DNA of 64,000 bases from Anaerolineae bacterium (GCA_963675785.1 OY776562.1:1344001-1408000); one strand, 5' to 3'; numbered from the stretch's first letter, positions 13,867 to 39,014 are shown. Notes: generated from the letters alone by a model not told the origin. Program-made: numbers and translations.

Positions 13867-14658
13867 TCAGCATGGTTCTGCGGCATAGTGCAACAGATGT
13901 TTGCAAAAAATCGGTACGGTATATTCGGCGGATCCTTGTAGCAGGGCGTAAGGTTGACAGGGATAATACCCCTCACCACGAGTTAAGGGTGTGCTCTCCA
14001 GGTTAAACTCGACGATTAGGGCACCCTGTTCATGCGCCCTGGCTGGCAGGTCAGAGGCGGGATAAACATTGGCAGACGTGCCGATGACCAGCATTAAACC
14101 GCAGGCATCCACTGCCTGATGAATCTCTTCCATACAGCGCACGTCTTCGCCAAAGAGCACCATATTGGGTTTGAGTGGATAGTTGCACTTGGGACAGGCG
14201 GGAGCACTTGGCACTGGAAGCAGATATTCGGCTGTAAAAGGGCCAGTGTAGCCGCATTTGAGGCATTGTACGCTGCGGTGGTCGCCGTGTATTTCCAACA
14301 CTCGAAGGCTGCCAGCAATCTGGTGCAGTCCATCCACATTCTGGGTGATGATGGTGGTGGATAAGCCAGCATTTTGCAATTCGGCCAGAGCCAGGTGGGC
14401 AGCGTTGGGGTGCTTATCTCGCAGGTTTTGGGCCAATGCGCGAAACATTTCCCAGCAGAGACTGGGTGAGCGGTAAAAGGTGTCGATGCTGGCATATAGG
14501 TCGGGGTCGAAAACAGACCAGAGACCATCCTTGCTGCGAAAGTCTGGAATGCCGCTTTCCACCGAGATGCCGGCGCCTGTAAGAATGACGATGGGGCCCA
14601 TGTGCAAGTGTAGGGCAGCCAATTGAGCAAGCTCGACTAGCTCAGTAGGTTCATTCAT
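13867..14658 (-). CDS. cobB: NAD-dependent protein deacylase (Sir2/CobB family)
   Basis: TGAGISVESGIPDFR, TQNVDGLH, EIHG, two CxxC pairs and IGTS. Confidence 0.85.
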   Translation of the reverse strand: MNEPTELVELAQLAALHLHMGPIVILTGAGISVESGIPDFRSKDGLWSVFDPDLYASIDTFYRSPSLCWEMFRALAQNLRDKHPNAAHLALAELQNAGLSTTIITQNVDGLHQIAGSLRVLEIHGDHRSVQCLKCGYTGPFTAEYLLPVPSAPACPKCNYPLKPNMVLFGEDVRCMEEIHQAVDACGLMLVIGTSANVYPASDLPARAHEQGALIVEFNLESTPLTRGEGYYPCQPYALLQGSAEYTVPIFCKHLLHYAAEPC

Positions 14659-14850
14659 CTGAGGATCACTATATGAAATAATCAACGGGCACATTGTTCG
14701 GCCTTTTATCCTGGATGTCGCAGTGTGCGATAAATGATTGACATCTGCTTTGATCTACATTATTCTATAAAAGAATCTAGGTAATTATTCGAAAGCGTCT
14801 TTTCAAAAGGGACACCGGTGTGCTAAAAAAGCATCTGGTGATGGGATTGT

Positions 14851-23092: not shown

Positions 23093-23121
23093 ATTATAAA
23101 TAGGCAAAGTGGGCCTGTCAA
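23093..23121 (-). promoter_or_regulatory. Consensus sigma70 promoter
   Basis: TTGACA-17 nt-TATAAT exact match on the minus strand. Confidence 0.8.
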
Positions 23122-23430
23122 CAAGCGCTGCGTGTAATTCTCGTTAAGCCGCGAATTGCAGCAAACCCACCCCCAACAGGGCAACGGCAGCTAGTAATAC
23201 GGCGGCTACAGGCAGGCTGATCATACGGATGTGGTTCATGGTGTTGCTCTCCAGTTTGTGCGCGTTTCATACATATATATACGCACAAACTGGCAATTAG
23301 TTCCGTAAAGAAAGCGTTAATTTGCGAGAGAATTGCAGGTTGCTCGGGGTAGTTGACGAAGGACAGAGCGGCAGTATAATGGGTTTGTCTCACGTTTGTC
23401 ATCATCAACCTTTTCCCTCGAATCTATACT

Positions 23431-24531
23431 GTGGAGGTCTCGGTGCCGCCAAGGATTCTCGAGATACTTGGTTCCATATCTTCAGACACGATTCGTGTAC
23501 TTCCTTGTGAACGCCTGAATCTGGACCGAATCGAAGGACTTGTCGACTACTCCGAGCTCGAGTCCATCAACAAGCCGAATCAGCCTTTCGAAGTTGATGT
23601 CCGCACTGACTGGACGGGCGACCTCCATAGCGTTCCCATTCCTTCGCCCTCTCTGCTGCGCTACTTCATGGACGGTTCGAGGCGTACGTACCGGATCGCC
23701 GACATCATTGTGAAGGATCATTACTACCCACTGATCGCCGGCCAGGTGGGAGTGGCTGTCGTCGAGCGAGAGCCAATGAGCGGGAGGCTGCATCCCCTGC
23801 GCCAGTACTGCTCATCCCAGACCGTGCTAGCCATACCGCCATGCTTCACCGAGAGTGACTCCAAGCAGCTTCAGGCGGAAATCGAGCGAAAATCGCCGTA
23901 TCCTGTCGAAGTGCTCCGATATAAAGCCGAAACAGACAAGGACCCCGTCGACTTGGGAGTTGCCCGCATCATGCGTGAGATGGCCGCCAATGAGGTTGAG
24001 ACAGTCATACGCATGTTTTCTGATCAAGCTCTGGGTAACGGCCGCATGCTCGTGGTTGACGGACCACTTCGCTTTGGTCAGTCGTTCGATGTGACTCAAT
24101 TTCGCAACGTCATTGGCGTTAGCAAGACCTTCTTGCCCAGTCTCAAACTCGGCAAAGGCAGGGGACGCCAAGATGTAGGAGCGGTCACGTCGCAACTCGG
24201 CCAAGCTCATAGGACTTGTGTTTACAAGTCGCCCCACGACGATCGGGTGATGGGTGTTTGGTACGTACGCCTCCGCAGCCCCAGCAACCTGACCGGCCCG
24301 CTGCAAGGCCTGATCAAGGTGGAGATATTCGCTTGCGACCAACAGGAACGTGAATATGGGTTCAGCCCTGCGCGCATCGATACGCTCTCTCGCTGTCTCT
24401 ACGAGCACAGAAACGTGACCCCTTTTGGCAGCGATTGGCGCTGGGCGAGCCACCTCTACCCTGTCTTTGCTGCAGAAAGCTATGTCAAGTCCAGGTTCGT
24501 CAGTGACGTCGTGTTCAAAGCCATGTTCTGA
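23431..24531 (+). CDS. NurA-like (RNase H fold) nuclease
   Basis: FMDGSRR, VVDGPL, GVSKTF and HLYPVFAAE motifs, plus its position upstream of a HerA-like ATPase; start uncertain. Confidence 0.7.
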   Translation: MEVSVPPRILEILGSISSDTIRVLPCERLNLDRIEGLVDYSELESINKPNQPFEVDVRTDWTGDLHSVPIPSPSLLRYFMDGSRRTYRIADIIVKDHYYPLIAGQVGVAVVEREPMSGRLHPLRQYCSSQTVLAIPPCFTESDSKQLQAEIERKSPYPVEVLRYKAETDKDPVDLGVARIMREMAANEVETVIRMFSDQALGNGRMLVVDGPLRFGQSFDVTQFRNVIGVSKTFLPSLKLGKGRGRQDVGAVTSQLGQAHRTCVYKSPHDDRVMGVWYVRLRSPSNLTGPLQGLIKVEIFACDQQEREYGFSPARIDTLSRCLYEHRNVTPFGSDWRWASHLYPVFAAESYVKSRFVSDVVFKAMF

Positions 24532-24539
24532 GGTGAAAG

Positions 24540-26195
24540 ATGACAAACCGATGCATTGGTCGTGTGACAGCCACAGAGAATGCCCCAACCAGCTGCGATT
24601 CGCTGCAATTCTGGGTCGACGCTGATGTCATACTCAAACCCTTCGACATTGTTCGTGTAGAGCAAAGAGGACGGGACCCGTCCGAGACAAGCCACACCTA
24701 TGCCATCGTGACCGGCCTGTCCTACATCACGGACAGCGCAAGCCATCTGGCAAACTATGTATCCGCAGACTTTGGAGATGTGAGCCAACATGCCGTGAAC
24801 AAGCGCATGGGCACGGCGATCGCTTTCGCGGACGTGCTCTACAACAACGCCGAGATCGAGATGCCCGTTGTCGATGGTGCCGCTGTCGAATGGGCCGACG
24901 AAGAAGGAATCCGCGAAGCCCTCGGCATCAACAGCTACAGATACCCCATTCCCGCCGGCTATATAAGAACCTCAAATGGCATCGAAGTCCCCGTGGATTT
25001 GGAGGCGGACTATCTGCTTGGCCCAGAAGGAGCCCATCTCAACATCGCAGGGATATCTGGACTGGCTACTAAGACTTCGTACGCCATGTTCCTCCTCAGC
25101 TCAGTCCAGCAACGGCGGGCCGACCAGGTATCTATGATCATCTTCAACGTCAAGGGGCAAGACCTCCTTGCAATCAATGAGCCAAACGACGATCTGACAG
25201 AAGCCCAGCGGCTGGATTGGACACGGTGCGGACTCGACCCAGTGCCGTTCCGAGATGTGCGGTTCCTGTACCCATATAGTCGTAGCGCTACGCAGAACCA
25301 CACAACATCCCACGTTTCGCGAACGACCCTCGAACGACAGAAAGATCAGGGGATAGCACGTAACTACTACTATGATGTGCAGACGGCAATTCCAAAGCTT
25401 TCCTACTTGTTCGCAGACGTGGATGACTCGACTTCGACAATGCAATCAATTGCTGCCGAGATTGCGGAGTGGGAAGATATATCGGAATGGTCAGAATTAT
25501 TTACGAAGGTTGCAAATCGTACTAAATCCGGATCAGGACAAGATAAATCGATTGCAATTGCCTCTTGGAGGAAATTCAACAGAATATTGACAGCACGCTC
25601 TAAAAGCGATCTATTCTGTGAAAAAAGCATAATAAATCAAAAAGAGGAACGACAGGAGACAATCGAGGATGCTGTCAGCTCACTCCGTGGGGGACAGGTT
25701 CTGGTCATTGATATCGAACCGCTTCCTGACCACCTGCAACGCCTGGTCTTTGGAGACGTCATCAAGACCATCTATGGTATCAAGCTGAATGAGCGCGATG
25801 ACGTGTTACCTGATGATTTGGGTCACGTCATCATCTTTGCCGATGAATTGAACAAATACGCACCCGGTACCTCAGGCGCCAACACTAGTTCTCTGACTGC
25901 CAATATTCTCGAGGTTACCGAGCGTGGAAGGTCCCTTGGCACCGTGCTTTTCGGCGCAGAGCAATTTCGCACCGGAGTCCACGATAGAGTCCTGGGTAAC
26001 TGCAGCACAAATGTGTACGGAAGAACCAGTCCAGTCGAGATCGCCAAGTGCCCAGACTACAAGTACTTCCCCAACACCTACAAGAATGCGGTCACGCGCT
26101 TGCCAAAGGGCACCCTCTTGCTGCAGCACGCGCTGTTCCGCGCAGCACTCATCAAAGTTAGCTTCCCCTTCCCATGCTACTATCAGCCAAAGTAA
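24540..26195 (+). CDS. HerA-like ATPase/DNA translocase (HAS barrel + FtsK/HerA domain)
   Basis: N-terminal IGRV..TE beta-barrel, atypical Walker A GISGLATKT, IFNVKG, Walker B IIFADELNKY and Arg finger ERGRSLG. Confidence 0.85.
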   Translation: MTNRCIGRVTATENAPTSCDSLQFWVDADVILKPFDIVRVEQRGRDPSETSHTYAIVTGLSYITDSASHLANYVSADFGDVSQHAVNKRMGTAIAFADVLYNNAEIEMPVVDGAAVEWADEEGIREALGINSYRYPIPAGYIRTSNGIEVPVDLEADYLLGPEGAHLNIAGISGLATKTSYAMFLLSSVQQRRADQVSMIIFNVKGQDLLAINEPNDDLTEAQRLDWTRCGLDPVPFRDVRFLYPYSRSATQNHTTSHVSRTTLERQKDQGIARNYYYDVQTAIPKLSYLFADVDDSTSTMQSIAAEIAEWEDISEWSELFTKVANRTKSGSGQDKSIAIASWRKFNRILTARSKSDLFCEKSIINQKEERQETIEDAVSSLRGGQVLVIDIEPLPDHLQRLVFGDVIKTIYGIKLNERDDVLPDDLGHVIIFADELNKYAPGTSGANTSSLTANILEVTERGRSLGTVLFGAEQFRTGVHDRVLGNCSTNVYGRTSPVEIAKCPDYKYFPNTYKNAVTRLPKGTLLLQHALFRAALIKVSFPFPCYYQPK

Positions 26196-26210
26196 GAGGA
26201 CAAAGCGAGC

Positions 26211-27788
26211 ATGCAAGAATCAGAAGTCAGGATTGGCGCCTATTTGCTTGAGATCATCACCACTGGCATGTATACCAACCCGCTCGACACAGTCCGAGAA
26301 TACATCCAGAACAGCACAGACTCACTGCTGGAGGCCGTGCGTGAGGGGAAGGTTGACCGCGACAAGGCCCGCATAAGGGTTGCGTTCGACCCGCGAAGCC
26401 GCAACCTTTCCGTGCGAGATGAAGGTATGGGAATACCTGCCGATGAGGTAAGTGCCCGTCTGGTAAGTGTCGGAATATCCAATAAGAAGATCGGGGTTGA
26501 CGCCGGCTTTCGAGGCATTGGCCGCCTGGCTGGAACGGCGTTCTGCCGCAAGCTCATGTATGAGACCAGTGCCATCGGTGAGGACATCATATCTCGAGTG
26601 GAATTCGACTGCGAGGGTATGCGGCAGGCGGTTGCGAGGCGAGATGCGAGTCAGGCTGAGCTAGCCTCCGTGATAGCCAGCAACACAATGGTCTTTCAGG
26701 ATTCCACCAGTCTGCGAAACGAGCACTATTGTACAGTGCAAATGGTCGATATCGGTGATGATCATGGGGTGTTTCTTGACCGCAAGGCTTTGACCGACTA
26801 CCTTAGAGAGGTGGCTCCGGTGGCGTTTGACCAGCAATGGTTCTGTTACGCACCGAGAATTGTCGAGTGGACTTGCGAGCAAGGCATTGACCTTCCTGAA
26901 GTGACACTCGTCCTCGAAGAAACTGGCGGCAACAGCGTGCAGATATTCAAGCCCTACAGCACCCTGGAAACAAGTCGCAGCATGCGTGATGGGAATCACG
27001 AGATGCACATCACCGGCGTAGAGTTCTTGCAGGACTCCGGGCCACAGCCGAGGTACTGGGGATGGATAGGCAAGAGCAAGCTCGAAGGTCAGATTGGCAA
27101 CAACCTGACTCGTGGACTCCGTTTTCGTATGCACAACATCTCCATCGGTGAAGAAGCCGTAAGCAACCGATTCTTCAGGGAATGCAATGTAGCTTCGCGC
27201 TTCAATGGCTATTTTGTCGGAGAGATCCATATAATCGATGACCGCGTGCTGCCGAACGCAAGGAGGGATTGGTTCGAAAACAACCCGACCTGGCAGGCCA
27301 TAAGCAATGATCTAGGACGACAAGTCAAGCAGCTCGAAAAACGTGTGAGAGTCGTCTCTACAGAGAGAAACTCAAAGCCGGCCAAGGCGGCGGCGCGCGC
27401 AGCGCGCCTTATCACAAAATACAAGGATACCTCTCAAGAGAGCTCTTCCGCTCCGCCGCATGTCATCACACACGCCGAAGCTAGACAGGCAATGGAGGAT
27501 ATCGGTGACAGCATCCGCGGCATCGATGATTCCAGACCAGTTCCCGGGAAGAGCTATGCCGGCTACAGCCCAGACCAACTCCGGGAGCAACTGGAGTACC
27601 TAAGGTCGCAGATAGGGTCCCAGACCAACGGGACAGTGGCCCTGGCGTCTTGGCTTGACAAGAAGCAGCGCAAAGTTATCACCACACTGCTTGACACACT
27701 TCATTCAAGACTTGATGCTGAACCATATCGAATTGCCAAGGAAACCGTGCTTGAGCTCTACGGTCCTAACGCCAGAAAGAATCAATGA
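26211..27788 (+). CDS. GHKL ATPase (HATPase_c_3, MORC/HtpG-like)
   Basis: N-box REYIQNSTD, G1 DEGMGI, G2 GFRGIGRLAG and S5-like region GEIHI...PNARRDWF. Confidence 0.85.
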   Translation: MQESEVRIGAYLLEIITTGMYTNPLDTVREYIQNSTDSLLEAVREGKVDRDKARIRVAFDPRSRNLSVRDEGMGIPADEVSARLVSVGISNKKIGVDAGFRGIGRLAGTAFCRKLMYETSAIGEDIISRVEFDCEGMRQAVARRDASQAELASVIASNTMVFQDSTSLRNEHYCTVQMVDIGDDHGVFLDRKALTDYLREVAPVAFDQQWFCYAPRIVEWTCEQGIDLPEVTLVLEETGGNSVQIFKPYSTLETSRSMRDGNHEMHITGVEFLQDSGPQPRYWGWIGKSKLEGQIGNNLTRGLRFRMHNISIGEEAVSNRFFRECNVASRFNGYFVGEIHIIDDRVLPNARRDWFENNPTWQAISNDLGRQVKQLEKRVRVVSTERNSKPAKAAARAARLITKYKDTSQESSSAPPHVITHAEARQAMEDIGDSIRGIDDSRPVPGKSYAGYSPDQLREQLEYLRSQIGSQTNGTVALASWLDKKQRKVITTLLDTLHSRLDAEPYRIAKETVLELYGPNARKNQ

Positions 27789-29176
27789 ACGTACTGATAG
27801 TCGAACCTTCCTACCGATCCAAATACCCCCCTCTTGGCCTAATGAGAATCTCCGCGTGCCACAAGGCACGCGGAGATTGTGTTACCTTCATTCGAGGAAA
27901 GATGCCTGAGATGCGCGTGCCCCAGCGATGGCATCGCATTTATGTGGGGTCCCTTTTCACGTATGAATTGCCTCGTACAGTAGACACTGTCAACTACTAT
28001 GCAGATTGTGTGCCTTCTCCGGGTGATCTTTGGGTGGGTGGCATAGGGGCAACGCTGCTCCCAGAGTATGTAAAAGAACGCGTTCCAGATGGGGTCCATG
28101 TCTTTGAAGGTCCCCTTGATAGGTCCAACATGCTGGGTCTCGGAGAGCCTCCCGTTGCAGAGTGCATTCCCGACTATGCCATGATTGACTCTGTGGAGTA
28201 TGGCTATCGGCCCAGGGATTCGTACTTTATTCGCGTCTCCATCGGGTGCATTCGCAAGTGCCAATTCTGCGCTGTGCGTCTTCTCGAACCGACTTTTGGC
28301 TACCTGCAGAGTGTCCGAGACCAGCTCGATGCCATTGACTCTCAACACGGTGAGCGCCAAAACCTCGTCATCATGGATAACAACATCCTGGCCCTAGAAA
28401 ACCTCGATCTTGTAATCGCCGAAATTCGCGATGAGGGCTTTGCACGAGGTTCAAAGAGAGGCGGGAAGCTAAGGACCGTCGATTGCAACCAGGGCATTGA
28501 TGCCAGGCTCATCAATGAACATATAGCAGAACAACTGTACTCTATTGCGCTTAAGCCAGTCCGGTTGGCTTTCGATAATCTGTCCGTCGAAAAGGACTAC
28601 AGGCGCGCTGTCGCACTGATGGCCAACGCAGGCTTTAAGCAATTTACCACCTATACCATGTTCAACTACAAAGACGACCCGGCAAGCTTCTATCGCCGCC
28701 TCCAGATCGGCCACGAGCTTGGACAAGAGCATGGCGTCAAGATAACGAGCTTCCCGATGCGGTTCATTCCTATCGATGATGTGAACCGACACTATATCTC
28801 GCCGAACTGGAGCTATCGCTGGCTCCGAGGAATCCAGTGTATTCTCCAGGCAACACATGGCATCGTAAGTCCTAGCGTGCCGTTCTTTGAGCGGGCCTTC
28901 GGAGCAACTCTGGATGAATTCTTGGAGATAACGGCCATGCCTGACGACTATATCATCTACCGTGCCAAGAATGAGACGGAAGGTGCTGCCGAATGGCGTA
29001 GTCTCTATCGGAGACTCGCTCCCTCCGAGCGTCGAGCGTTCTTGTCTTGCCTGCAAGATCTCCATGCCAGCGGCGGGGCCAAACGTGCGACAGAGTATCC
29101 AGAGTTCCTGGATCTCCTCGTCCACTACTACCCGGAGATCAGAGAGGGCGTGACAATGCCTCTGCGCCCCGTCTAG
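27785..29176 (+). CDS. Radical SAM protein with an N-terminal B12-binding-like domain
   Basis: YPPLGL, VGGIGATL, GCIRKCQFC (CxxxCxxC), MDNN and NQGIDAR; ATGA overlap with the upstream gene. Confidence 0.85.
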   Translation: MNVLIVEPSYRSKYPPLGLMRISACHKARGDCVTFIRGKMPEMRVPQRWHRIYVGSLFTYELPRTVDTVNYYADCVPSPGDLWVGGIGATLLPEYVKERVPDGVHVFEGPLDRSNMLGLGEPPVAECIPDYAMIDSVEYGYRPRDSYFIRVSIGCIRKCQFCAVRLLEPTFGYLQSVRDQLDAIDSQHGERQNLVIMDNNILALENLDLVIAEIRDEGFARGSKRGGKLRTVDCNQGIDARLINEHIAEQLYSIALKPVRLAFDNLSVEKDYRRAVALMANAGFKQFTTYTMFNYKDDPASFYRRLQIGHELGQEHGVKITSFPMRFIPIDDVNRHYISPNWSYRWLRGIQCILQATHGIVSPSVPFFERAFGATLDEFLEITAMPDDYIIYRAKNETEGAAEWRSLYRRLAPSERRAFLSCLQDLHASGGAKRATEYPEFLDLLVHYYPEIREGVTMPLRPV

Positions 29177-29266
29177 CCCCATCCTCCGTCCCCAGCACTT
29201 GACACACCCCCTCTCTCCCTCGACAATCAACCTAACCTACTAATATCCCTAAGGAGACCCCCGATC

Positions 29267-30124
29267 ATGATGAAATCCCTCACCGATACTTACACCCTGC
29301 ATAACGGCACACAGATTCCTTGCGTGGGCTTTGGCACCTGGCGTACACCCGATGGCGACGTATGCATCCGTGCCGTCAAGGACGCCATCGCAGCCGGCTA
29401 CCGCCACATCGATACCGCCGCCGCCTATGGCAACGAAGAAAGCGTGGGCGCTGGCATCAAGCAAGCTGGTGTGCCCCGAGAAGAGCTGTTCATCACCACC
29501 AAACTCTGGAACGCACATCACGGCTACGAGGCCACCTGCGCCGCCTTTGAAGACAGCCTGAATCGGCTGGGCCTGGATTACCTTGACCTGTACCTCATCC
29601 ACTGGCCCAACCCAATCAAATTCCGCCACAACTGGCAAGAGACCAACGCCGGAAGCTGGAAGGCCTTTGAAGAGTTCTATGCCGCCGGTCGCATCCGTGC
29701 CATCGGCGTCAGCAATTTCATGCCGCGCCACCTGGATGAACTCATGAAAACCGCCACCATCGCGCCCATGGTCAACCAGATCTTTGTTTGCCCAGGATAC
29801 ACCGAGCCCGAAACCACCGCCTACTGCAAAAAGAACAACATCCTGATCGAGGCCTACAGCCCGCTGGGCTCCGGTGAGCTTCTCGCCAACCCCACGCTGC
29901 AGGCGCTGGCTCAAAAGTACGCCAAGAGCGCGGCGCAAGTCTGCCTGCGCTGGAGCCTGCAGATGGGCTTTTTGCCGCTGCCCAAGTCCGTCACCACCTC
30001 GCGCATCATCGAAAACACCGCCCTGTTCGATTTCGAGCTCTCTGCCGAGGACGTCGACACCCTGTCCAATCTCAAGACCGATTTCTACGGTGTCGCCAAG
30101 AACCCCGACACTGCCACCTGGTAG
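29267..30124 (+). CDS. Aldo/keto reductase (2,5-DKG reductase-like)
   Basis: GFGTW, IDTAAAYGNE, LYLIHWP, IGVSNF and LPKS; TTGACA-17-GACAAT promoter at about 29199-29227. Confidence 0.92.
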   Translation: MMKSLTDTYTLHNGTQIPCVGFGTWRTPDGDVCIRAVKDAIAAGYRHIDTAAAYGNEESVGAGIKQAGVPREELFITTKLWNAHHGYEATCAAFEDSLNRLGLDYLDLYLIHWPNPIKFRHNWQETNAGSWKAFEEFYAAGRIRAIGVSNFMPRHLDELMKTATIAPMVNQIFVCPGYTEPETTAYCKKNNILIEAYSPLGSGELLANPTLQALAQKYAKSAAQVCLRWSLQMGFLPLPKSVTTSRIIENTALFDFELSAEDVDTLSNLKTDFYGVAKNPDTATW

Positions 30125-30230: not shown

Positions 30231-30355
30231 CTCGTCAGTTTGCCACAGGGCCGCCGCGCTACCCGGCCTCACATACAGCACCCAACGGCGAGTCCCTCGC
30301 GATGACGCGGAACCACAGGACTCGTCTTTTCTTACGCCAACTTGCAGGAGCCACC

Positions 30356-31432
30356 ATGCCCAGCATTCTCATCCCGGGCCTTATTGATGCCCATGTACAC
30401 CTGCGTCAGCCGGGCGCTCCCCACAAAGAGCGCATTGCCACCGGCACCGCGGCCGCCCTCGCCGGCGGCGTCGTTGGCGTTCTCGATATGCCCAACAACA
30501 CACCGCCCCTCCTCACCAGGATGGATTTTTTCCACAAAGTCGATCTTTTCAACGCCCAGGCCGTAAGTGATTACGGTCTTTTTTGTGGCTACCAGGCTGG
30601 GCGCGCTGAGGACGCCTGCGCCGTCGCTCCGCTGGCCATCGGCTGCAAACTCTATTTGGACGAAACCCACAATGCCGGGGGCGATCCTCTCTCCGACGAG
30701 GACCTCGACGCCTTGTTCGCTTCTTGGCCCGGACCCGGCCCCATCGCCATACACGCTTCTTCGGCCAGTATTCGCCGGGTGCTGCGCTTCGCCGAACGCT
30801 ACGACCAGCCCCTGCACGTTTGCCATGTGCCCCATCCCGACGACTTGCTGGTCATCGACGCTGCCCGTCAGGCTGGGGTAAACGTCACTTGCGAGGTAAC
30901 GCCCCATCACCTGCTCCTCACCACCGAGGACGCCGCGCGCCTGGGCCCCCTCGGCCAGATGAAGCCGCCCCTCTTGCCGCCTGAAATCGTCAAGCTCTAC
31001 TGGGAGCGGTTGGACCTGGTGGATATTATCGCCACCGACCACGCCCCCCACACCCTGGAAGAAAAGGCTGGTCCCAACCCGCCGCCAGGTGTGCCTGGGC
31101 TAGAGACCCTGCTGCCCCTCATGCTGCAGGCCGTCCGCGAGGATCGCCTCACCATGGAGCGCCTCATGCGCCTGCTGGTCTATGGGCCAGCCCGCGTCTA
31201 CCACCTCGATCCGCCCGATGCCGAGGTGCGCGTCTCGCTGGAAGAGTATACCCTGCCCGAATTCGGCTACCAGACCCTTTGTGGCTGGAGCCCCTTTGGC
31301 GGGAAAACCGCCTATGGCCGCGTCGAGTCCGTTACCCTGCGCGGCAAGATTGCCTATGAGAACGGCCAGGTGTTTGCCGAGCCAGGCTCGGGCAGGCTCC
31401 TGAGCTGTATTGAACCCGCCGGCCTCGTTTGA
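30356..31432 (+). CDS. pyrC: Dihydroorotase
   Basis: [26 protein letters not shown] and PGLET motifs; AGGAG RBS. Confidence 0.92.
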
Positions 31433-31475
31433 GGACCGGCGTATTTTTTGCCATGCGTTCATCACTAGAGGAGGT

Positions 31476-32462
31476 ATGCCTGTGGAACCGCCAAGGAATG
31501 GTCTGAAAACTGTGGGCCTCTCGCCCGACCGCGACAACAGCTTTTATGGTCGAGACATCGTATCCGTCAGTCAATTCTCACCGGCCGATCTCACCTACAT
31601 CATCGGCGTCGCCGATGAAATGCGCTCGCTGGTTCGCCGTGTGGGCGCCACCGACCTGCTCAAGGGCCACATTCTGGCCAACCTGTTCTACGAACCCTCC
31701 ACCCGCACCTCGTCCTCCTTTATTGCCGCCATGGAGCGGCTGGGTGGCTCGGTGATCCCCATTCACGGCGTGCAGTACTCTTCGGTCAGCAAGGGTGAAT
31801 CCCTGCCCGATACCATCCGCACCCTCGAATGCTATGCCGATGTCATTGTGCTGCGCCACCCCGAGATAGGTGCTTCCGAAGTGGCCGCCAAGTATGCAAA
31901 CAAGCCGGTCATCTCCGCTGGCGACGGCGTGGGTGAACACCCCACCCAGGGCCTGCTCGATCTCTACACCATCCATGCCGAGCTCGGCACATTGGACGGC
32001 CTGCATGTGGCCATGGTCGGCGACCTCAAGAACGGTCGAACCGTCCATTCGCTCACGCGCCTCCTTTCGATGTATGATACGCGCATCACCTTTGTCTCGC
32101 CGCCCAGCCTGCGCGCCCCCGAGGGCCTCAAGCAAGAGCTGGACCAGGCCGGCATCGCCTACAGCGAAACCGAAGCCGTCGAGAACGTCATCGACGACGT
32201 GGACGTGCTCTATGTCACCCGCGTGCAAAAAGAGCGCTTTGCCGATCTCGACCTGTACGAGCGAGTCAAGGATTATTACCGCATCACGCCCGAACTGATG
32301 CAGCGCGCCAAGGAACACATGGCCCTGATGCACCCGCTGCCCCGTGTGGGCGAGATACCCTACGAGGTCGATGCCGACCCGCGAGCCGCTTATTTCCGCC
32401 AGGTCGAGAACGGCATGTACGTGCGCATGGCCCTGTTGGCCGCCGTCCTCGGCAAAGCCTAA
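31476..32462 (+). CDS. pyrB: Aspartate carbamoyltransferase catalytic subunit
   Basis: [23 protein letters not shown] and HPLPR motifs. Confidence 0.95.
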
Positions 32463-32474
32463 GGTGATACGCTC

Positions 32475-33887
32475 ATGATATCCTTTTGGGAAAAGCTAGA
32501 GTTCTCTGCCGCCAAACGTAACAGCCTGCTCTGCGTGGGTCTCGATCCGCGCCCCGGTCAGGTGCCCGCTCGCTATGCCGATGTGGCCGAATTCATGCTG
32601 GATATCATCGATAAAACCAGCGACCTGGCCGCCTGCTACAAACCCAACATCGCCTTTTTTGAGGCTATGGGCCCCCAGGGCATGGAGGTGCTGAAGCGCA
32701 TCATTACGGCCCTGCCGCCCGATACGCCCCTGCTGCTGGACTGCAAGCGCGCCGACATCGCCTCTACCGGCGAAGCCTACGCCGTGGCCGCTTATGACGT
32801 GCTGAACGTCGATGCGGTGACCGTGAACCCTTATCTGGGTGCCGATGGTGTGCGCCCGTTCTTGCGCCCCGATCGCGGCGTCTTTGTGCTCTGCCGCACT
32901 TCCAACCCTTCCGCACCCGAACTGCAAAACTGGACCGCCAACGGTCAACCGCTCTACGAGCACGTGGCCGATCTGGCCGCCGAATGGGGCACCGCTTCCG
33001 GTGTCGAGGTGGGACTGGTCATCGGCGCCACTTATCCCGAAGAGCTGACTCGCATCCGCCGACGCCACGCCCAGCCCTGGTTCCTGGTGCCCGGCGTGGG
33101 TGCCCAAGGCGGCGACCTGCAAGCCGTATTGTCCGCTGGCCTGCGTGAGGATGGCCTTGGTCTGCTCATCAACTCTTCGCGGGGCATCATCTATGCCGAC
33201 GATCCCCGCGCTGCCGCCCAGACCCTGCGCGATCAGATCAACACCGAGCGTGCCGCCTACAAACCGGCTGCTGTACCCTGCCCCGTATCCATCGAGGAGC
33301 GCGAGCTAGCGCGCACCCTCTTTCAAGCGGGCTGCGTGCGCTTTGGCGATTTCACCCTGCACTCTGGCGCCCATTCGCCCGTCTATATCGACCTGCGCGT
33401 GCTGGTGAGTCATCCGGCGGCCCTGGCCGAGGCGGCCAGCGCTTATGCCCGTCTGCTTCGGCCTCTCAGCTATCAGCGGGTGGCCGGGCTGCCCTATGCC
33501 GCCTTGCCCATCGCCACCGCCGTCTGCCTGCAAACCGGCGATCCGCTCATCTATCCTCGCCGCGAGGTCAAGCAGTACGGCACCAAGCGCCAAATCGAGG
33601 GCGAGTTTAACGACGGCGAGACCGCCGTGGTGCTCGATGACCTCATCACCTCTGGCGGAAGCGTGCTCGAGGCCGCCGAACCGCTGCAAGGCGCCGGATT
33701 GCGCATCAGCGACGTGGTGGTGCTCATCGACCGCGAACAGGGCGGCGTAGCCAACTTGGCCGAACGGGGTTATACCGTCCATGCCGTCACCACCCTGACC
33801 CGCATCGTCGCGGCCTTGGAGTATGACCAGCTCATCTCGTCCGAACAGGCCGCTCGCGTTAGAGACTACCTGGAGGCCCGCCCCTGA
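32475..33887 (+). CDS. pyrF: Bifunctional OMP decarboxylase / orotate phosphoribosyltransferase (PyrF-PyrE fusion)
   Basis: LCVGLDP, DCKRADI and PGVGAQGG, followed by [13 protein letters not shown] and the PRPP motif [10 protein letters not shown]. Confidence 0.92.
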
Positions 33888-34843
33888 TGGATTCCCTCTC
33901 CGACATCGGCCACATTTACCACCCTGGCTTGTCCATTGACCTGGCTGGCGTGCACCTGACGAACCCCTTGGTGTTGGCTAGCGGCGTATGGGGCTGCGCC
34001 GCCGAAACCCTGGTGCGCATTGGGCGCCACGGCGCCGGTGCCGTCACCACCAAATCCTGCAGCCTGCAGCCGCGCACAGGGCATCCCAATCCCTCGGTAG
34101 TGCCCTGGGAGGGCGGTTTGATTAACGCTGTCGGTTTGGCCAACCCGGGAGCCGAACAAGAAGCGATCGAGATAGCTGACGCCCGCGAGGGGCTGGCCGC
34201 TTTGGGCGTGCCCCTCATTGCCAGCGTGTTTGGCGGCCGTCACCAAGAATACGCCCGCACCGCCGAGATTGTGGCCCGTGCCCACCCTGAGCTCATCGAG
34301 CTCAACATTAGCTGCCCCAACGTGGCCGACGAGTTCGGCCAGGCTTTCGCCTTCGACCCCCTCGCTGCCAGCGAGGTTACCGCTGCCGTCCGCGAGGTCT
34401 ATGCCGGGCCTCTGCTGGTCAAGCTGTCGCCCTCGGCACCCAACATCGTGCGCGTAGCCCAGGCCGTAGTGGCCGCCGGCGCCGACGGCCTCAATATAGG
34501 CAATACCCTGGGGCCGGGCATGTTGATCGACATCTACGCCCGTCGCCCCGTGCTCTCTAACAAAGTGGGCGGCATTTCCGGGCAGGCCATTCGCCCCATC
34601 GCCGTACGCTGTGTTTGGCAGGTTAGCCAGGCCGTGGATGTACCCATCATTGGCACAGGCGGCGTGTGCACCGGAGAAGACGCCCTAGAGATGGTCATGG
34701 CCGGAGCCACCGCCGTGGGCATCGGCAGCGTGCTGCAAGAAGGCCCGATCGCCGTAGAGCGCATCCTGGCCGAGATGACCGACCTGATGCGCCAGGAGAA
34801 CATCACCACCTTGGAGGAGATTCGGGGGTGTGCCCATGAGTAG
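33887..34843 (+). CDS. pyrD: Dihydroorotate dehydrogenase (family 1B)
   Basis: VTTKS, NAVGLAN, ELNISCPN, KLSP and GGISG motifs. Confidence 0.93.
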   Translation: MDSLSDIGHIYHPGLSIDLAGVHLTNPLVLASGVWGCAAETLVRIGRHGAGAVTTKSCSLQPRTGHPNPSVVPWEGGLINAVGLANPGAEQEAIEIADAREGLAALGVPLIASVFGGRHQEYARTAEIVARAHPELIELNISCPNVADEFGQAFAFDPLAASEVTAAVREVYAGPLLVKLSPSAPNIVRVAQAVVAAGADGLNIGNTLGPGMLIDIYARRPVLSNKVGGISGQAIRPIAVRCVWQVSQAVDVPIIGTGGVCTGEDALEMVMAGATAVGIGSVLQEGPIAVERILAEMTDLMRQENITTLEEIRGCAHE

Positions 34844-35570
34844 CTACTATGCCATGCGCATTCGGCGACGCATAGCCGAGCACAAGGCTGGCGTTACCCT
34901 AGTGTTCGATGGCGAACTGCCCGCCGAGCCAGGCCAGTTCGTGCTCGCCTGGCTGCCGGGGGTCGAAGAACGCCCCCTGGCCGTGGTCAGCAGCGCCCCC
35001 TTTGCCCTCACCATCGCCGCCGTTGGGCCCTTTACCGAGGCCGTTTGCGCCCTGCAGCCCGGCCAGCGACTCTGGATTCGCGGTCCCTATGGACACGGCT
35101 TTGAGCCCGAGGGCACCCGCCATCTGTTGGTGGGCGGAGGCTGCGGCACCGCTTCTCTTACTCTGTTGGCCGCCCGTCTGCTGCGTCAGGGCGACCGCGT
35201 GATCGCCGCCATCGGTGCTCGCAGCGCCAGCCAGCTCATGCTCGATGTCGCCTTTTCGCACATGGATGTGGACCTGCTGGTAGCCACCGACGATGGCAGC
35301 GCCGGCTCCAAAGGCACCGTCCTCGATGCCGCCGGCCCCCTCATCGACGCTTGCTGGCCTCACGCCGTATATGCTTGCGGCCCAGAACGCATGTTACAGG
35401 CCGTGGCACTCCGCTGCCGAGAGGCGGGCGTAGCCTGTCAGCTCAGCTTGGAGCGCACCATGCGCTGCGGCATTGGGGTTTGCGGACAATGCAACTGCGG
35501 CGGTAAGCTCGTCTGCGCCGACGGCCCCGTCTTTGACGGCTTGACCTATCTGGAATCGCTGCTGGATTAG
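34836..35570 (+). CDS. pyrK: Dihydroorotate dehydrogenase electron transfer subunit
   Basis: PGQF, RGPYGHGF, GGGCG, CGPERM and CGIGVCGQC...C.DGPVF. Confidence 0.92.
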   Translation: MSSYYAMRIRRRIAEHKAGVTLVFDGELPAEPGQFVLAWLPGVEERPLAVVSSAPFALTIAAVGPFTEAVCALQPGQRLWIRGPYGHGFEPEGTRHLLVGGGCGTASLTLLAARLLRQGDRVIAAIGARSASQLMLDVAFSHMDVDLLVATDDGSAGSKGTVLDAAGPLIDACWPHAVYACGPERMLQAVALRCREAGVACQLSLERTMRCGIGVCGQCNCGGKLVCADGPVFDGLTYLESLLD

Positions 35571-35620: not shown

Positions 35621-35718
35621 GTATAGTCCGTCAATCTCCCTCGCGTTACCCCTTGCCACAACCGCCCTCACTGAGGCATAATATACTGGTAACTACAAAA
35701 CACCCTGAGGAGCAGCCC

Positions 35719-38700
35719 TTGACCGCCCTATCCGATTACTGCCAGTCCATCAATGCCGCACTTGTCACCGGCGATGCCACCGAGCACACCCATCGGTCTG
35801 CCTTACAAGACCTGGTGAAAAACCTTGCTCCTGGCCTGACCGTGCTCAACGAGCCGCGCCATATCGCCTGTGGTGCGCCTGACTTGGTAGTCCGTCGAGG
35901 AAACACCCCTGTCGGCTATATCGAGACCAAAGACATCGGCCAAGACCTGTCCCGTACCGAGCGCTCAGAACAGCTCAAACGCTATCGTGAAGCCCTGCAC
36001 AACCTCATCCTTACGGATTATGTCGAGTTTCGCCTCTATCGCGGCGGAGAGCTGGCCGCCAGCGCCAGTCTGGGCTCTCTCGACAGCGGCAATCGCCTGC
36101 ATCGCACCCGTGACGGTGAATCCGCAGTAATGGCGCTCTTTCAACAGTTCTTGGCTGCCAAAGCGCCAACCCTGGGCAACGCCAAAGAACTCGCCGAGCA
36201 CATGGCCGCCCTCACCCGCTTGCTTTGCGCTACCATCCTCAAGGCCTATGAGGACGAGGAACACGATCCGAACATTGAGCAGCATTTCCATCATGAGATG
36301 GCCATCTTTCGGCGCGTGCTCATCCACGATCTCAAACCAGAGACCTTTGCCGATATGTATGCCCAAACCATCAGCTACGGCCTGTTCGCCGCCCGCTGTG
36401 CCCACCATGCCGGCACACCCTTTGATCGTCAGAGCGCCATCTTTGACCTGCCCGGCACCAATCCGCTCTTGCGCTCTCTGTTCGGCCGCATGGCTGGCCC
36501 CGAGATCGACCCGCGCATCGAGTGGGCCGTGAACGACCTGGCCGCTTTGCTCGACCGCGCTCGTATGGCCGAGATCCTGCGCGATTTTGGCCAGCGCAGC
36601 CAGCGTGAAGACCCTGTTGTTCATTTCTACGAGACCTTTTTGGCCGCTTATAATCCCAAGCTGCGCGAACAACGCGGTGTCTATTACACGCCCGAGCCCG
36701 TGGTGGGCTATATCGTCCGCTCGGTGCACGCCTTGCTCAAGGGTGAATTCGGCCTGCCCATGGGCCTGGCCGATACGGACACCACCACCTATGCCAACAC
36801 CAACCCCACCGTGCAAACGGCCGCCGGCAAGCCGCGCAAGCGTGTCGAGAGCCCCCGCGTGCTGGTGTTGGACCCCGCCTGTGGCACGGGCACCTTTTTG
36901 CATGCCGTGGTGGACGAGATTCAGGACGAACTGCGCTCCCAGGGCTTGGCTGGTGCCTGGCCCGCTTATGTGGCCGACCATCTGCTGCCCCGCCTCTTTG
37001 GTTTTGAGCTGCTCATGGCCCCCTACACTGTGGCTCACCTCAAGCTGGGCTTACAACTGGCCGAGAGCGGTTATGATGTGCAAGATGCCCATAGCCGTCT
37101 CAACGTCTATCTGACCAACACCCTGGAGCAGCCCGGCGATATGGAGGTATTGCCCCTCTACGGCCAGGCCCTGGCTGCTGAGAGCCGTGAGGCCGCCGGC
37201 GTCAAGAGCGACCTGCCCATTATGGTGGTGCTGGGCAACCCGCCTTATTCCGGCAACTCGGCTAACGCCAGCTATCGCGAGGTAGACGGCAAACGCCAGT
37301 TCACCCCCATCGGCAAACTGGTACATGACTATTATTACGTCGATGGCCACCCTCTGGGCGAGCGCAACCCTAAATATCTCCAGGATGACTACGTCAAATT
37401 CATCCGCTGGGCCGAGGATCGCGTTGAACGCACGGGGGCGGGTGTGGTGGCCTATATCACCAACCACGGCTACTTGGATAACCCCACCTTTCGCGGTATG
37501 CGCCAGCACCTGATGAGCACCTTTGACGAGCTCTACCTGTTGGACCTGCACGGTAGTAGCAAGCGCCAGGAAAAAGCGCCCGATGGTGGTGTCGATGAGA
37601 ACGTCTTTGATATCATGCCGGGCGTGACTATCGCCCTGATGGTGCGCCGCTCCGGCCCTCACAGTGTAGCCTGTGCCGTTTATCACGCCGATCTCTACGG
37701 CCAGCGCCAGGACAAGTACGCCTGGCTCAATGCCCACGATAAAAACGATACCCCCTGGGAACGACTCATGCCCCAAAGTCCTTTTTATCGCTTTGTGTCA
37801 GTAGGGCACTCAGCGAGTGAGTACGAAGCTCTGCCCTCGACCACAGAACTCTTCGGCGTCTCTGTGAATGGTTTCAAGACCCATCGCGACGATTTCGCCA
37901 TTGCCTTCCAACGAAGTGATATCGAGGGGCGTATCCGCGATCTGCGCGATGAGCGCCTCAGCGATGAGGCCCTACGCACTCGCTACAAACTGGGCACGCG
38001 TTATGATTTGCGTTCCGCTCGCAAAGCTATCGAAGCAAATCCTGTCTGGGAGCGGGCCGTCATGTGCTGTGCTTATCGGCCTTTCGATGAACGCTGGTGC
38101 TATTACTCTTCGACCGTGATGGATCGCCCCCGCCGCGAGTTGTTCGATCATGTGGTCGGACAGCGGAATTTCTGCCTTTCGATCTCACGACAGCAGGCTA
38201 CTGTAGGTTTTTGCCATGCTATCATATCAGTTGCACCGCCCAATGATTGTCTTATCTCGAATGTCTCCCGTGAAGCCGGCCATGCCTTTCCCCTCTACCT
38301 CTACCCGCAATCGGACATGCTTCCCGGTTTAGAGCAGCCGACCGCGGCCCCTGGCGGGCGGCGCCCCAACCTGGATGAAAAGCTCATCGCCCGCCTCTCT
38401 CGCGGCCTGGGTCTATCCTTTGTACCCGATGGCCACGGCGACTTGCAGGCCACCTACGGTCCCGAGGATATGCTGCACTACATCTATGCCCTGCTCTATG
38501 CCCCTGGCTACCGTGCCCGCTATGCCGATCAGCTCAAGATCGACTTTCCGCGCATTCCCTTTACCGCCAACGTCGCTCTCTTCCGCACCTTGTGTGGCTT
38601 TGGGGATGAACTCTGCGCTTTGCACCTGCTGGATTCACCCGCCCTGGATACGCTGCGCACTCGCTATCCCTCTAGCGACGGCGACAACTTGGTAGACAAG

Positions 38701-38967
38701 CCGCGCTACCTTCCCGAAGAAGACGGCGGCAAGGTGCACATCAACAAAAAGCAGTACTTTGAGGGTATCACCGAGGAAGCCTGGAGCTTTTACATCGGCG
38801 GTTACCAGCCCCTGCAAAAGTGGCTCAAAGACCGCCAGGGCCGTAACCTCGATTACGACGACATCTTGCATTATCAGCACATCGTGGTCGCCCTTGAGGA
38901 GACCATGCGCCTCATGGCCGAAATCGACGAGGCCATTGAAGATGCTGGCGGCTGGCCGCTGAAATAA
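35719..38967 (+). CDS. Single-polypeptide restriction-modification enzyme (type IIG/ISP-like N6-adenine methyltransferase with an N-terminal nuclease and C-terminal specificity region)
   Basis: PD...IETK nuclease motif, GVYYTP, LDPACGTGTF, GNPPY, YRPFD and IGGYQ..KWLKDR; TTG start after GAGGAG. Confidence 0.9.
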   Translation: MTALSDYCQSINAALVTGDATEHTHRSALQDLVKNLAPGLTVLNEPRHIACGAPDLVVRRGNTPVGYIETKDIGQDLSRTERSEQLKRYREALHNLILTDYVEFRLYRGGELAASASLGSLDSGNRLHRTRDGESAVMALFQQFLAAKAPTLGNAKELAEHMAALTRLLCATILKAYEDEEHDPNIEQHFHHEMAIFRRVLIHDLKPETFADMYAQTISYGLFAARCAHHAGTPFDRQSAIFDLPGTNPLLRSLFGRMAGPEIDPRIEWAVNDLAALLDRARMAEILRDFGQRSQREDPVVHFYETFLAAYNPKLREQRGVYYTPEPVVGYIVRSVHALLKGEFGLPMGLADTDTTTYANTNPTVQTAAGKPRKRVESPRVLVLDPACGTGTFLHAVVDEIQDELRSQGLAGAWPAYVADHLLPRLFGFELLMAPYTVAHLKLGLQLAESGYDVQDAHSRLNVYLTNTLEQPGDMEVLPLYGQALAAESREAAGVKSDLPIMVVLGNPPYSGNSANASYREVDGKRQFTPIGKLVHDYYYVDGHPLGERNPKYLQDDYVKFIRWAEDRVERTGAGVVAYITNHGYLDNPTFRGMRQHLMSTFDELYLLDLHGSSKRQEKAPDGGVDENVFDIMPGVTIALMVRRSGPHSVACAVYHADLYGQRQDKYAWLNAHDKNDTPWERLMPQSPFYRFVSVGHSASEYEALPSTTELFGVSVNGFKTHRDDFAIAFQRSDIEGRIRDLRDERLSDEALRTRYKLGTRYDLRSARKAIEANPVWERAVMCCAYRPFDERWCYYSSTVMDRPRRELFDHVVGQRNFCLSISRQQATVGFCHAIISVAPPNDCLISNVSREAGHAFPLYLYPQSDMLPGLEQPTAAPGGRRPNLDEKLIARLSRGLGLSFVPDGHGDLQATYGPEDMLHYIYALLYAPGYRARYADQLKIDFPRIPFTANVALFRTLCGFGDELCALHLLDSPALDTLRTRYPSSDGDNLVDKPRYLPEEDGGKVHINKKQYFEGITEEAWSFYIGGYQPLQKWLKDRQGRNLDYDDILHYQHIVVALEETMRLMAEIDEAIEDAGGWPLK

Positions 38968-39014
38968 GGGTAACATGAATTGCTACCAACAGACATTCTG
39001 TAGAGGGAGATAAC

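Follow-up and report, generated by a model that had tools for sequence, protein, structure and literature searches.

A recurrent four-gene cassette of NurA, HerA, a GHKL ATPase and a divergent radical SAM protein as a probable mobile conflict system

Introduction

What could bring a NurA-family nuclease, a HerA-type ATPase, a GHKL ATPase and a radical SAM (S-adenosylmethionine) protein together in one tightly packed block of genes? The question is raised by a locus in the genome of an Anaerolineae bacterium (GCA_963675785.1, OY776562.1:1344001-1408000). The whole stretch of 64,000 nucleotides (nt) that was analysed is called the window here, and the locus occupies its positions 23431-29176, where four co-oriented, tightly coupled open reading frames (ORFs) lie on the + strand with intergenic gaps of 8, 15 and -4 nt. 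An initial annotation, made from the sequence alone, had read this block as a discrete cassette and as a candidate defence or DNA-modification system in which the radical SAM protein takes the place of a classical methyltransferase. We consider it quite probable that the cassette is a mobile conflict or defence system. The best account of the whole, namely an anti-invader cassette in which the radical SAM protein supplies a mark on DNA or a nucleotide and HerA-NurA acts as the executor, is to our judgment only a little short of evenly balanced. We would class the cassette as a modification-linked nucleoside triphosphatase-nuclease defence system with a new enzymatic module, and see a substantial chance that its chemistry is categorically new.

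Results

The four genes of the cassette are the following.

23431-24531, + strand: NurA-family nuclease gene, 366 amino acids (aa), RNase H-like fold
24540-26195, + strand: bacterial HerA-type hexameric ATPase/translocase gene, 551 aa
26211-27788, + strand: GHKL (Bergerat-fold) ATPase gene, HSP90/MORC-like, with a helical C-terminal region, 525 aa
27785-29176, + strand: divergent radical SAM gene with a B12-binding-like Rossmann N-domain, 463 aa, overlapping the GHKL gene by 4 nt

Coordinates, gaps and strand agree with the initial annotation, the four domain calls of which are upheld by sequence, profile and fold matches; the catalytic residues, which it had described as intact, are invariant in all four protein alignments. 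The nurA gene probably starts at a GTG at 23443, behind a GGAGG at 23433-23437 (read by eye), and is separated from herA by 8 nt.

Single-sequence searches with the NurA protein gave no useful match in Pfam, NCBIfam or PADLOC, and profile and fold comparisons were needed to place it. A profile of 16 homologs matches the NurA chain 7f6d_H of the Protein Data Bank (PDB) at an E-value of 6e-6, and the AlphaFold2 (AF2) model, with a predicted local distance difference test (pLDDT) score of 87, finds as its best Foldseek matches Deinococcus NurA (7f6d_G, 1.3e-11), TM1739 (1zup) and Sulfolobus NurA (2ygk), as well as chain 8wfd_G of the TdpAB complex at 2.4e-5. Residues D81, E188, D210 and H341 are invariant in the alignment and, by analogy, presumably form the catalytic site. 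The HerA protein matches Deinococcus radiodurans HerA (7f6d_B, E 2e-33) over residues 151-273 and 383-547 with the Walker A motifs aligned, and the unusual Walker A form GISGxATKTS is common to both (GISGLATKTS in the window protein). K178/T179 of Walker A and D435/E436 of Walker B are invariant; two HerA models of PADLOC are matched at about 0.005, and the PDB chains of SIR2-HerA and DUF4297-HerA at 0.003-0.7. The Deinococcus HerA-NurA complex (7f6d) is thus the best match of genes 1 and 2 in sequence and fold alike, and these comparisons confirm the two, as far as sequence and modelled structure can, as a Deinococcus-type NurA nuclease and a P-loop ATPase of the FtsK/HerA class.

The third protein matches PF13589 (HATPase_c_3) at 3.2e-7, above the cut-off, and its Bergerat-fold motifs I-III (E30/N34, D70xGxG74 and G99-R105) are invariant in 18 homologs, such that the GHKL half of the original GHKL/MORC assignment stands. 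Membership in MORC is not established: the best partial NCBIfam matches are HSP90 and HtpG. The MORC and paraMORC proteins of restriction-modification loci (PMC2292703) share with the window protein an intact Bergerat-fold ATPase in a restriction-type neighbourhood, whereas the best family matches of the latter are HSP90/HtpG-like; the same paper gives GhXhhpXXRhl as the MORC-specific S5-fold motif, and it mentions neither 'radical' nor HerA nor NurA. Against PADLOC, the GHKL protein matches one REase_II model at 0.009. A predicted complex of the GHKL and radical SAM proteins scored 0.00 in a run without controls and is uninformative.

The radical SAM protein reaches an E-value of only 0.022 against Pfam Radical_SAM, below the cut-off for the window protein; that family is recorded for many of its homologs. 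Single-sequence searches returned no useful NCBIfam or PADLOC match. The CxxxCxxC motif (C155, C159 and C162) is invariant in 22 homologs, and the mean column identity of the alignment is 52%. The AF2 model (pLDDT 86) has as its best Foldseek matches MgmA (9ccb), AprD4 (6fd2), TsrM, MiaB, RimO, CysS, TokK and OxsB, all of them enzymes that pair a Rossmann-type N-domain with a radical SAM barrel, of both B12 type and MiaB type. AprD4 and MiaB are not known to use B12, and both score as well against the model as the B12 enzymes do; PF02310 is weak in the homologs. Judged from the model, the protein is possibly cobalamin-dependent. A reading as a methylthiotransferase of the MiaB/RimO kind was rejected. 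The hallmarks of those enzymes are a second cluster held by three N-terminal cysteines and a C-terminal TRAM domain; because the present protein has no conserved N-terminal cysteines (no cysteine outside CxxxCxxC is invariant among the 22 homologs) and its C-terminus is all-helical in the model, not TRAM-like, it is not taken to be of this type.

The family to which the radical SAM protein belongs is large: grouping at 90% identity gives 1569 clusters, and at 50% identity there are 485 representatives with E<=1e-30. Its members occur in Anaerolineae, Firmicutes, Sumerlaeota, Planctomycetes and others under the database name 'cobalamin-binding domain-containing protein'. Fused forms occur (P0263, P0156, P0163 and P0172), and one fused representative carries a C-terminal ParB-like domain that matches the partner protein c1 (E 5e-6). 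In several forms, about 800 aa long, there is a helical extension of about 350 residues, with no Pfam match beyond Radical_SAM/B12-binding.

Recurrence and mobility

Whether the four genes form a unit was examined in loci anchored on the radical SAM gene and drawn from genomes, metagenomes and IMG/VR contigs. The set comprises 120 loci in which the radical SAM protein reaches 380 aa or more; shorter matches were left out, as were L001-L003, L011 and the window. All four genes are present in 16 of these loci and NurA/HerA in 19, and the gene order is that of the window in 15 of the 16, the radical SAM gene coming first in the other. Four of the 16 are near-identical (within L113-117). The homologous cassettes have overlaps and short gaps similar to those of the window, and their GC content ranges from 0.33 to 0.59; it lies below that of the flanks in most of the 13 loci for which both figures are available (window included), with no difference in one locus and an excess of 0.02 in another.

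A comparable picture was obtained from the other genes of the set. Viral-contig loci anchored on HerA contain all four genes in 15 of 19 cases, six of the 15 being previously unseen contigs; the remainder consist of two loci cut at the contig end, one that is decayed, and one, L166, in which HerA has other partners. Of 32 viral contigs anchored on GHKL, contig-name matching and search showed the radical SAM gene on 28 and gave no match for four. L178 and L194 are viral contigs with a GHKL protein of this family and no radical SAM match, one contig being rated 100% complete. Chance adjacency of four unrelated genes is rejected in view of this recurrence: a set that keeps its content and order in many unrelated loci is grouped far beyond what chance would produce. 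The co-occurrence that the initial annotation had named as a check is therefore found with either anchor.

The cassette is accessory. Among 40 relatives no ortholog of the radical SAM protein was found (two weak partial matches) and none of HerA (one weak match), which is contrary to a core, vertically inherited repair locus, the refuting circumstance that had been named at the outset. The acpS/amine-oxidase/SWIM block to the left of the cassette is syntenic in three relatives that lack the cassette; a clean empty site is not demonstrable, as the right flank is not conserved in those three. Tyrosine integrases and large serine recombinases adjoin recurring cassettes, and a phage prohead protease is found in L113. 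Relatives of the radical SAM protein are encoded on alphaproteobacterial plasmids, some of them conjugative, from Novosphingobium, Rhizobium, Agrobacterium and Mesorhizobium. The copies there carry the annotation 'DGQHR domain protein - radical SAM - ATP-binding protein', and a pair of PIN-like and ATP-binding genes adjoins them. In L005-L007 and L171-L172 (Sphingopyxis, Novosphingobium pNL1 and Agrobacterium plasmids) the arrangement is DGQHR - radical SAM - GHKL together with a PIN_8-like gene and a second GHKL gene, and one copy of this five-gene DGQHR set resides on the conjugative plasmid pNL1.

A cultured temperate virus, Marinitoga camini virus 1 (L173, KP836355, 6995-10821), likewise encodes a relative of the radical SAM protein, 360 aa in length, annotated as hypothetical and 32% identical over residues 2-350. 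The neighbours of its gene are convergent HerA and NurA genes of the window's subfamily, in the vicinity of a LexA-like repressor; the viral HerA is 32% identical to that of the window (E 1e-81), the viral NurA is recognised by hhalign with a probability of 99.8%, and no GHKL gene is annotated at the locus. Taken together, these observations support the cassette as a discrete, horizontally acquired, mobile unit, as had been proposed from its layout.

The radical SAM protein as an interchangeable module

As a unit, the cassette recurs; it is not closed. The radical SAM protein is the constant and promiscuous module, common to at least five architectures, and the initial idea of four genes as one system holds for the recurrence of the set and does not hold for its exclusiveness. 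The partners among the 120 radical SAM loci are distributed as follows.

GHKL protein: 55/120
ParB_N-like protein and SNF2 helicase (the SNF2 being ZorD/DpdE-like): 33/120
DGQHR-domain protein (TIGR03187 at 2e-26): 22/120
NurA/HerA: 19/120, as above
PbeA/PbeC (PbeA 8e-211, PbeC 1e-175), with a small PbeD/dnd_assoc_4-like gene and an MzaA-like helix-turn-helix protein: 16/120
300-aa protein c14, no annotation: 7/120
PD-Lambda-5_A (8e-72): 5/120
type IIG-like N6 methylase protein: 3/120
no recognised partner: 17/120

In the Pbe-type loci the radical SAM gene lies downstream of the PbeD-like gene. A FastTree phylogeny of 121 radical SAM proteins interleaves the partner types: L013, of the NurA-HerA-GHKL type, is sister to L004, of the SNF2 type, with a support of 99, and the radical SAM proteins of L022 and L025 are almost identical (branches of 0.05), although HerA of L022 shares 57% and HerA of L025 39% identity with the window protein. 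The DGQHR and ParB-like partners are presumably accessories of DNA-modification systems of the DndB/DpdB type, as the NCBIfam name suggests. Judged by their families, the partners would place the radical SAM protein in DNA-directed, modification-linked conflict systems.

Relation to known systems

The nearest comparison comes from L166, an operon on a provirus contig (3352-11000) that encodes, in order, a type IIG-like N6 methylase protein (1127 aa), NurA (391 aa), HerA (615 aa) and an N4/N6 methylase (411 aa). Its HerA is 37% identical to that of the window, and this HerA-anchored locus, though complete, has no GHKL or radical SAM gene, while family searches found no type IIG enzyme or methylase in the window cassette. 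Within the NurA-HerA lineage, then, the radical SAM protein sits where methylases otherwise sit, which, drawn as it is from one sister operon, is circumstantial evidence for a replacement of the one by the other.

The layout of L166 recalls that of the tdtA operon of the integrative element ICEth1 in Thermus thermophilus HB27, which consists of the type IIG enzyme Tth111II (1106 aa), a NurA-like protein (377 aa), TdtA (568 aa) and an N4/N6 methylase (410 aa), and of which all three genes tested are stated to be required for DNA donation in 'transjugation' (PMC5365140). The two operons have the same four-gene layout and similar sizes, the link between them being one of operon layout; no Thermus protein was among the best 120 homologs of the L166 HerA, and a plasmid search gave only two distant matches. 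The tdtA operon shares with the window a four-gene operon in which a NurA-like gene lies directly 5' of a HerA-like ATPase gene, and it differs in having a type IIG enzyme and a methylase where the window has GHKL and radical SAM genes, and in that its studied role is DNA donation.

Several defence or repair systems resemble the cassette in part. The Deinococcus HerA-NurA proteins are a chromosomal repair pair not known to have GHKL or radical SAM partners, whereas the pair in the window is accessory and mobile. TdpAB is a HerA/NurA-like pair, and the phosphorothioate system TdpABC (8wfd) embodies the same concept, that is, a one-gene DNA modifier with a restriction pair of HerA-like and NurA-like proteins. 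It differs from the window in that its modifier performs phosphorothioation and is not a radical SAM protein, in having no GHKL protein, and in a weaker NurA likeness than that to Deinococcus NurA. One report has tdpC alone making the mark (PMC12914056). SIR2-HerA and DUF4297-HerA (Gao_Her) likewise combine a HerA-family ATPase with an effector, but the window has no SIR2 or DUF4297 partner.

The Pbe literature describes PbeABCD as requiring a DNA mark, with many Pbe loci having no known mark and over half of the PbeAC pairs no dnd genes nearby (PMC6459918), and Krishnan et al. (2024) describe Pbe as CxC ABC ATPase-DndE systems that also recruit cytosine methylases (PMC10853773). The same radical SAM family accompanies PbeA, PbeC and a PbeD-like gene in the 16 loci listed above, although the window itself has no Pbe genes. 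The word 'radical' is absent from PMC6459918 and occurs in PMC10853773 only in regard to DndC, so far as the text of each is accessible, and neither mentions this radical SAM protein. PD-lambda-5, another system that shares the module, is described by its discoverers, in the available text, as a compact restriction-modification and abortive-infection (RM+Abi) system in which protein A is methyltransferase-like (PMC9519451).

No single system named in PADLOC v2 (2023) covers the cassette. The NurA and radical SAM proteins have 0 matches each there and no model names the four-gene system, in line with the novelty first suggested, and eight further versions of the radical SAM protein matched no PADLOC defence radical SAM model, with one weak partial match to LmuB (0.0022). 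The literature searches, which covered main texts and could have missed a passing mention, found no paper joining a radical SAM protein with HerA and NurA; those on radical SAM proteins with MORC, ParB/SNF2, anti-phage activity, defense islands and gene neighborhoods found no description of this system. One sentence in the available text of a 2026 preprint lists a 'PAACC + HSP90 + Radical SAM' triad among effector-type systems (10.64898/2026.10.19.760177), which may correspond to the DGQHR-type triad of the present loci.

Discussion

How might the four proteins act together? It is reasonable to postulate that the radical SAM protein, possibly with the aid of cobalamin, would place an unusual covalent mark on host DNA or on a nucleotide, and that this mark would take the role that DNA methylases or phosphorothioation have in related systems. 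The GHKL ATPase could then serve as an ATP-gated DNA clamp or sensor by which the state of the DNA is read, and could license the HerA hexamer to feed unmarked, foreign DNA into NurA for degradation. We advance this division of labour, in which the radical SAM protein would mark self, GHKL would clamp or sense and HerA-NurA would degrade what is unmarked, tentatively and as a minority expectation built on domain content and gene neighbourhoods. The support for a modifier role is circumstantial, and consists of the methylases that stand in L166 in place of GHKL and radical SAM, the dependence of Pbe systems on a mark, the DGQHR and ParB-like partners, and the fusion to a ParB-like domain.

Should the radical SAM protein mark DNA, it would represent a new chemistry of self/non-self discrimination and a partner for those Pbe-type and HerA-NurA-type systems that have no known modification gene. 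A broader extension, which we regard as somewhat unlikely, is that the family as a whole installs a novel covalent DNA modification, for example a radical C-alkylation or adduct on base or sugar, that is read as 'self' by HerA-NurA-GHKL, Pbe, ParB/SNF2 and DGQHR-GHKL-PIN systems alike. If true, epigenetic self-marking would have a third chemical class, the other two being methylation and backbone phosphorothioation/deazaguanine insertion, and the many 'solitary' Pbe-type systems would be accounted for. Either way, the family is large, is spread over phyla, prophages and plasmids, and is unstudied as far as the literature searched extends.

A number of observations weigh against the account given above. 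The alignment of the radical SAM protein contains no variable target-recognition region of the sort found in most DNA methylases. The radical SAM gene occurs together with DNA methylases in some loci, namely c39 in L021, L025 and L027 and the methylase-like PD-lambda-5_A, and because of this co-occurrence it is not a simple replacement for a methylase; the proposal that it acts in place of a methyltransferase is favoured, circumstantially, by L166 and qualified by these loci. Its free swapping of partners is compatible with a self-contained effector as well. The window copy, which is flanked by housekeeping genes and does not lie in a classical island, has neither an integrase nor transfer genes nearby. 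The sole studied operon with the layout of the sister locus, ICEth1 tdtA, was shown to serve DNA donation rather than defence (PMC5365140). Last, the survey itself has its limits, in that ORFs were taken from a crude longest-ORF caller and grouped by single-linkage BLAST clusters, many of the loci are short contigs, too short for partners to be seen, and near-duplicates are among them (L113-117, L005-007 and L018-020).

Several of these points lead to what we consider the most durable alternative, unlikely as we hold it to be: that the radical SAM protein is a portable or back-up effector, switched on in infection, that makes a toxic or chain-terminating nucleotide or inflicts radical damage on DNA or RNA, with GHKL as the switch and HerA-NurA as a second nuclease arm. 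One radical SAM lineage found with at least five unrelated partner sets, with close relatives that exchange them, is what such an effector would look like; its co-occurrence with bona fide methylase-type proteins and its high conservation in the absence of a variable specificity domain point the same way. To our knowledge viperins, which are nucleotide-modifying effectors, are the only known defence radical SAM proteins, and an effector here would be a second radical SAM antiviral family, of a different fold class. The fold of the present protein, however, is nearest to B12-type and MiaB-type enzymes and not to viperin, the methylases of the sister operon L166 stand exactly at the position of GHKL and radical SAM, neighbours of the DGQHR/ParB-like and DndE-like kinds typically belong to DNA-modification machinery, and there is a fusion to a ParB-like DNA-binding domain.

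It is also conceivable, if distinctly improbable in our estimation, that the cassette is a DNA-processing or transfer module that benefits its mobile element and not the defence of the host, after the model of the tdtA operon of ICEth1, where a restriction enzyme, NurA and the HerA-like TdtA are required for the donor cell to release DNA. L166, the HerA of which is related to that of the window, reproduces the layout and approximate sizes of that operon, and cassettes are found beside integrases, in prophages and on conjugative plasmids. The proposed kinship to TdtA is, however, drawn from operon layout, and the other partners of the radical SAM protein (Pbe, PD-lambda-5_A and SNF2/ParB) are components of defence and not transfer genes, as well as there being no integrase or transfer genes around the window copy; the Thermus operon, for its part, might be of restriction type, with DNA release as a side effect. 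The defence reading first put forward is accordingly favoured by the associations with integrases, prophages, plasmids, Pbe, PD-lambda-5 and SNF2/ParB, and has in DNA donation a real rival.

A housekeeping locus for double-strand-break repair, with HerA-NurA in end resection and the other two enzymes as accessories, is very improbable, for while the solved structures nearest to the products of genes 1 and 2 come from the HerA-NurA repair complex of Deinococcus radiodurans, orthologs of HerA and the radical SAM protein were not found in the 40 relatives, no mre11 or rad50 is among the annotated genes around the window cassette, the genes recur in prophages, on plasmids and beside integrases, and the GC content of the cassette is below that of its flanks in most loci.

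Surroundings of the cassette in the window

To the left, the cassette adjoins the acpS/amine-oxidase/SWIM block, and to the right an aldo-keto reductase gene. The promoters that the initial annotation had placed on both sides correspond to the first two of the following features.

23353-23380, + strand: promoter-like site TTGACG-16-TATAAT, 11/12 match, about 50 nt 5' of the first gene
29199-29227, + strand: promoter-like site before the aldo-keto reductase gene, starting 23 nt past the last cassette stop, at the right cassette edge
29267-30124: aldo-keto reductase gene (PF00248 at 5e-52)

Sites are thus present at the places described, but their number in the region, 4 against 4.0 in shuffled sequence, equals expectation, and they are merely consistent with cassette promoters. 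Beyond the aldo-keto reductase gene lies a pyrimidine biosynthesis operon (30302-35570) encoding an amidohydrolase, aspartate carbamoyltransferase, a fusion of orotidine monophosphate (OMP) decarboxylase and phosphoribosyltransferase, and dihydroorotate dehydrogenase B with its Fe-S subunit.

Between the SWIM gene and the cassette there are, on the - strand, a perfect -35/-10 promoter-like site (23121-23093, 12/12), a strong terminator-like hairpin of 12 pairs (23035-23005) and, read by eye, a hydrophobic ORF of 31 codons (23239-23144); a 96-aa ORF listed at 23118-23408 appears to be non-coding. At 35653-39998 the window encodes an N6 DNA methylase-domain protein of 1104 aa with a Type ISP specificity domain at its C-terminus (PF18135, 2.3e-87), after which comes a Schlafen/AlbA_2 protein; the pair may represent another restriction-type locus, distinct from the cassette and some 6.5 kb downstream of it. 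Over 39-41 kb the GC content of the window is down to 0.49-0.50. On the - strand, at 13867-14694, there is a SIR2-family gene, probably of housekeeping function.

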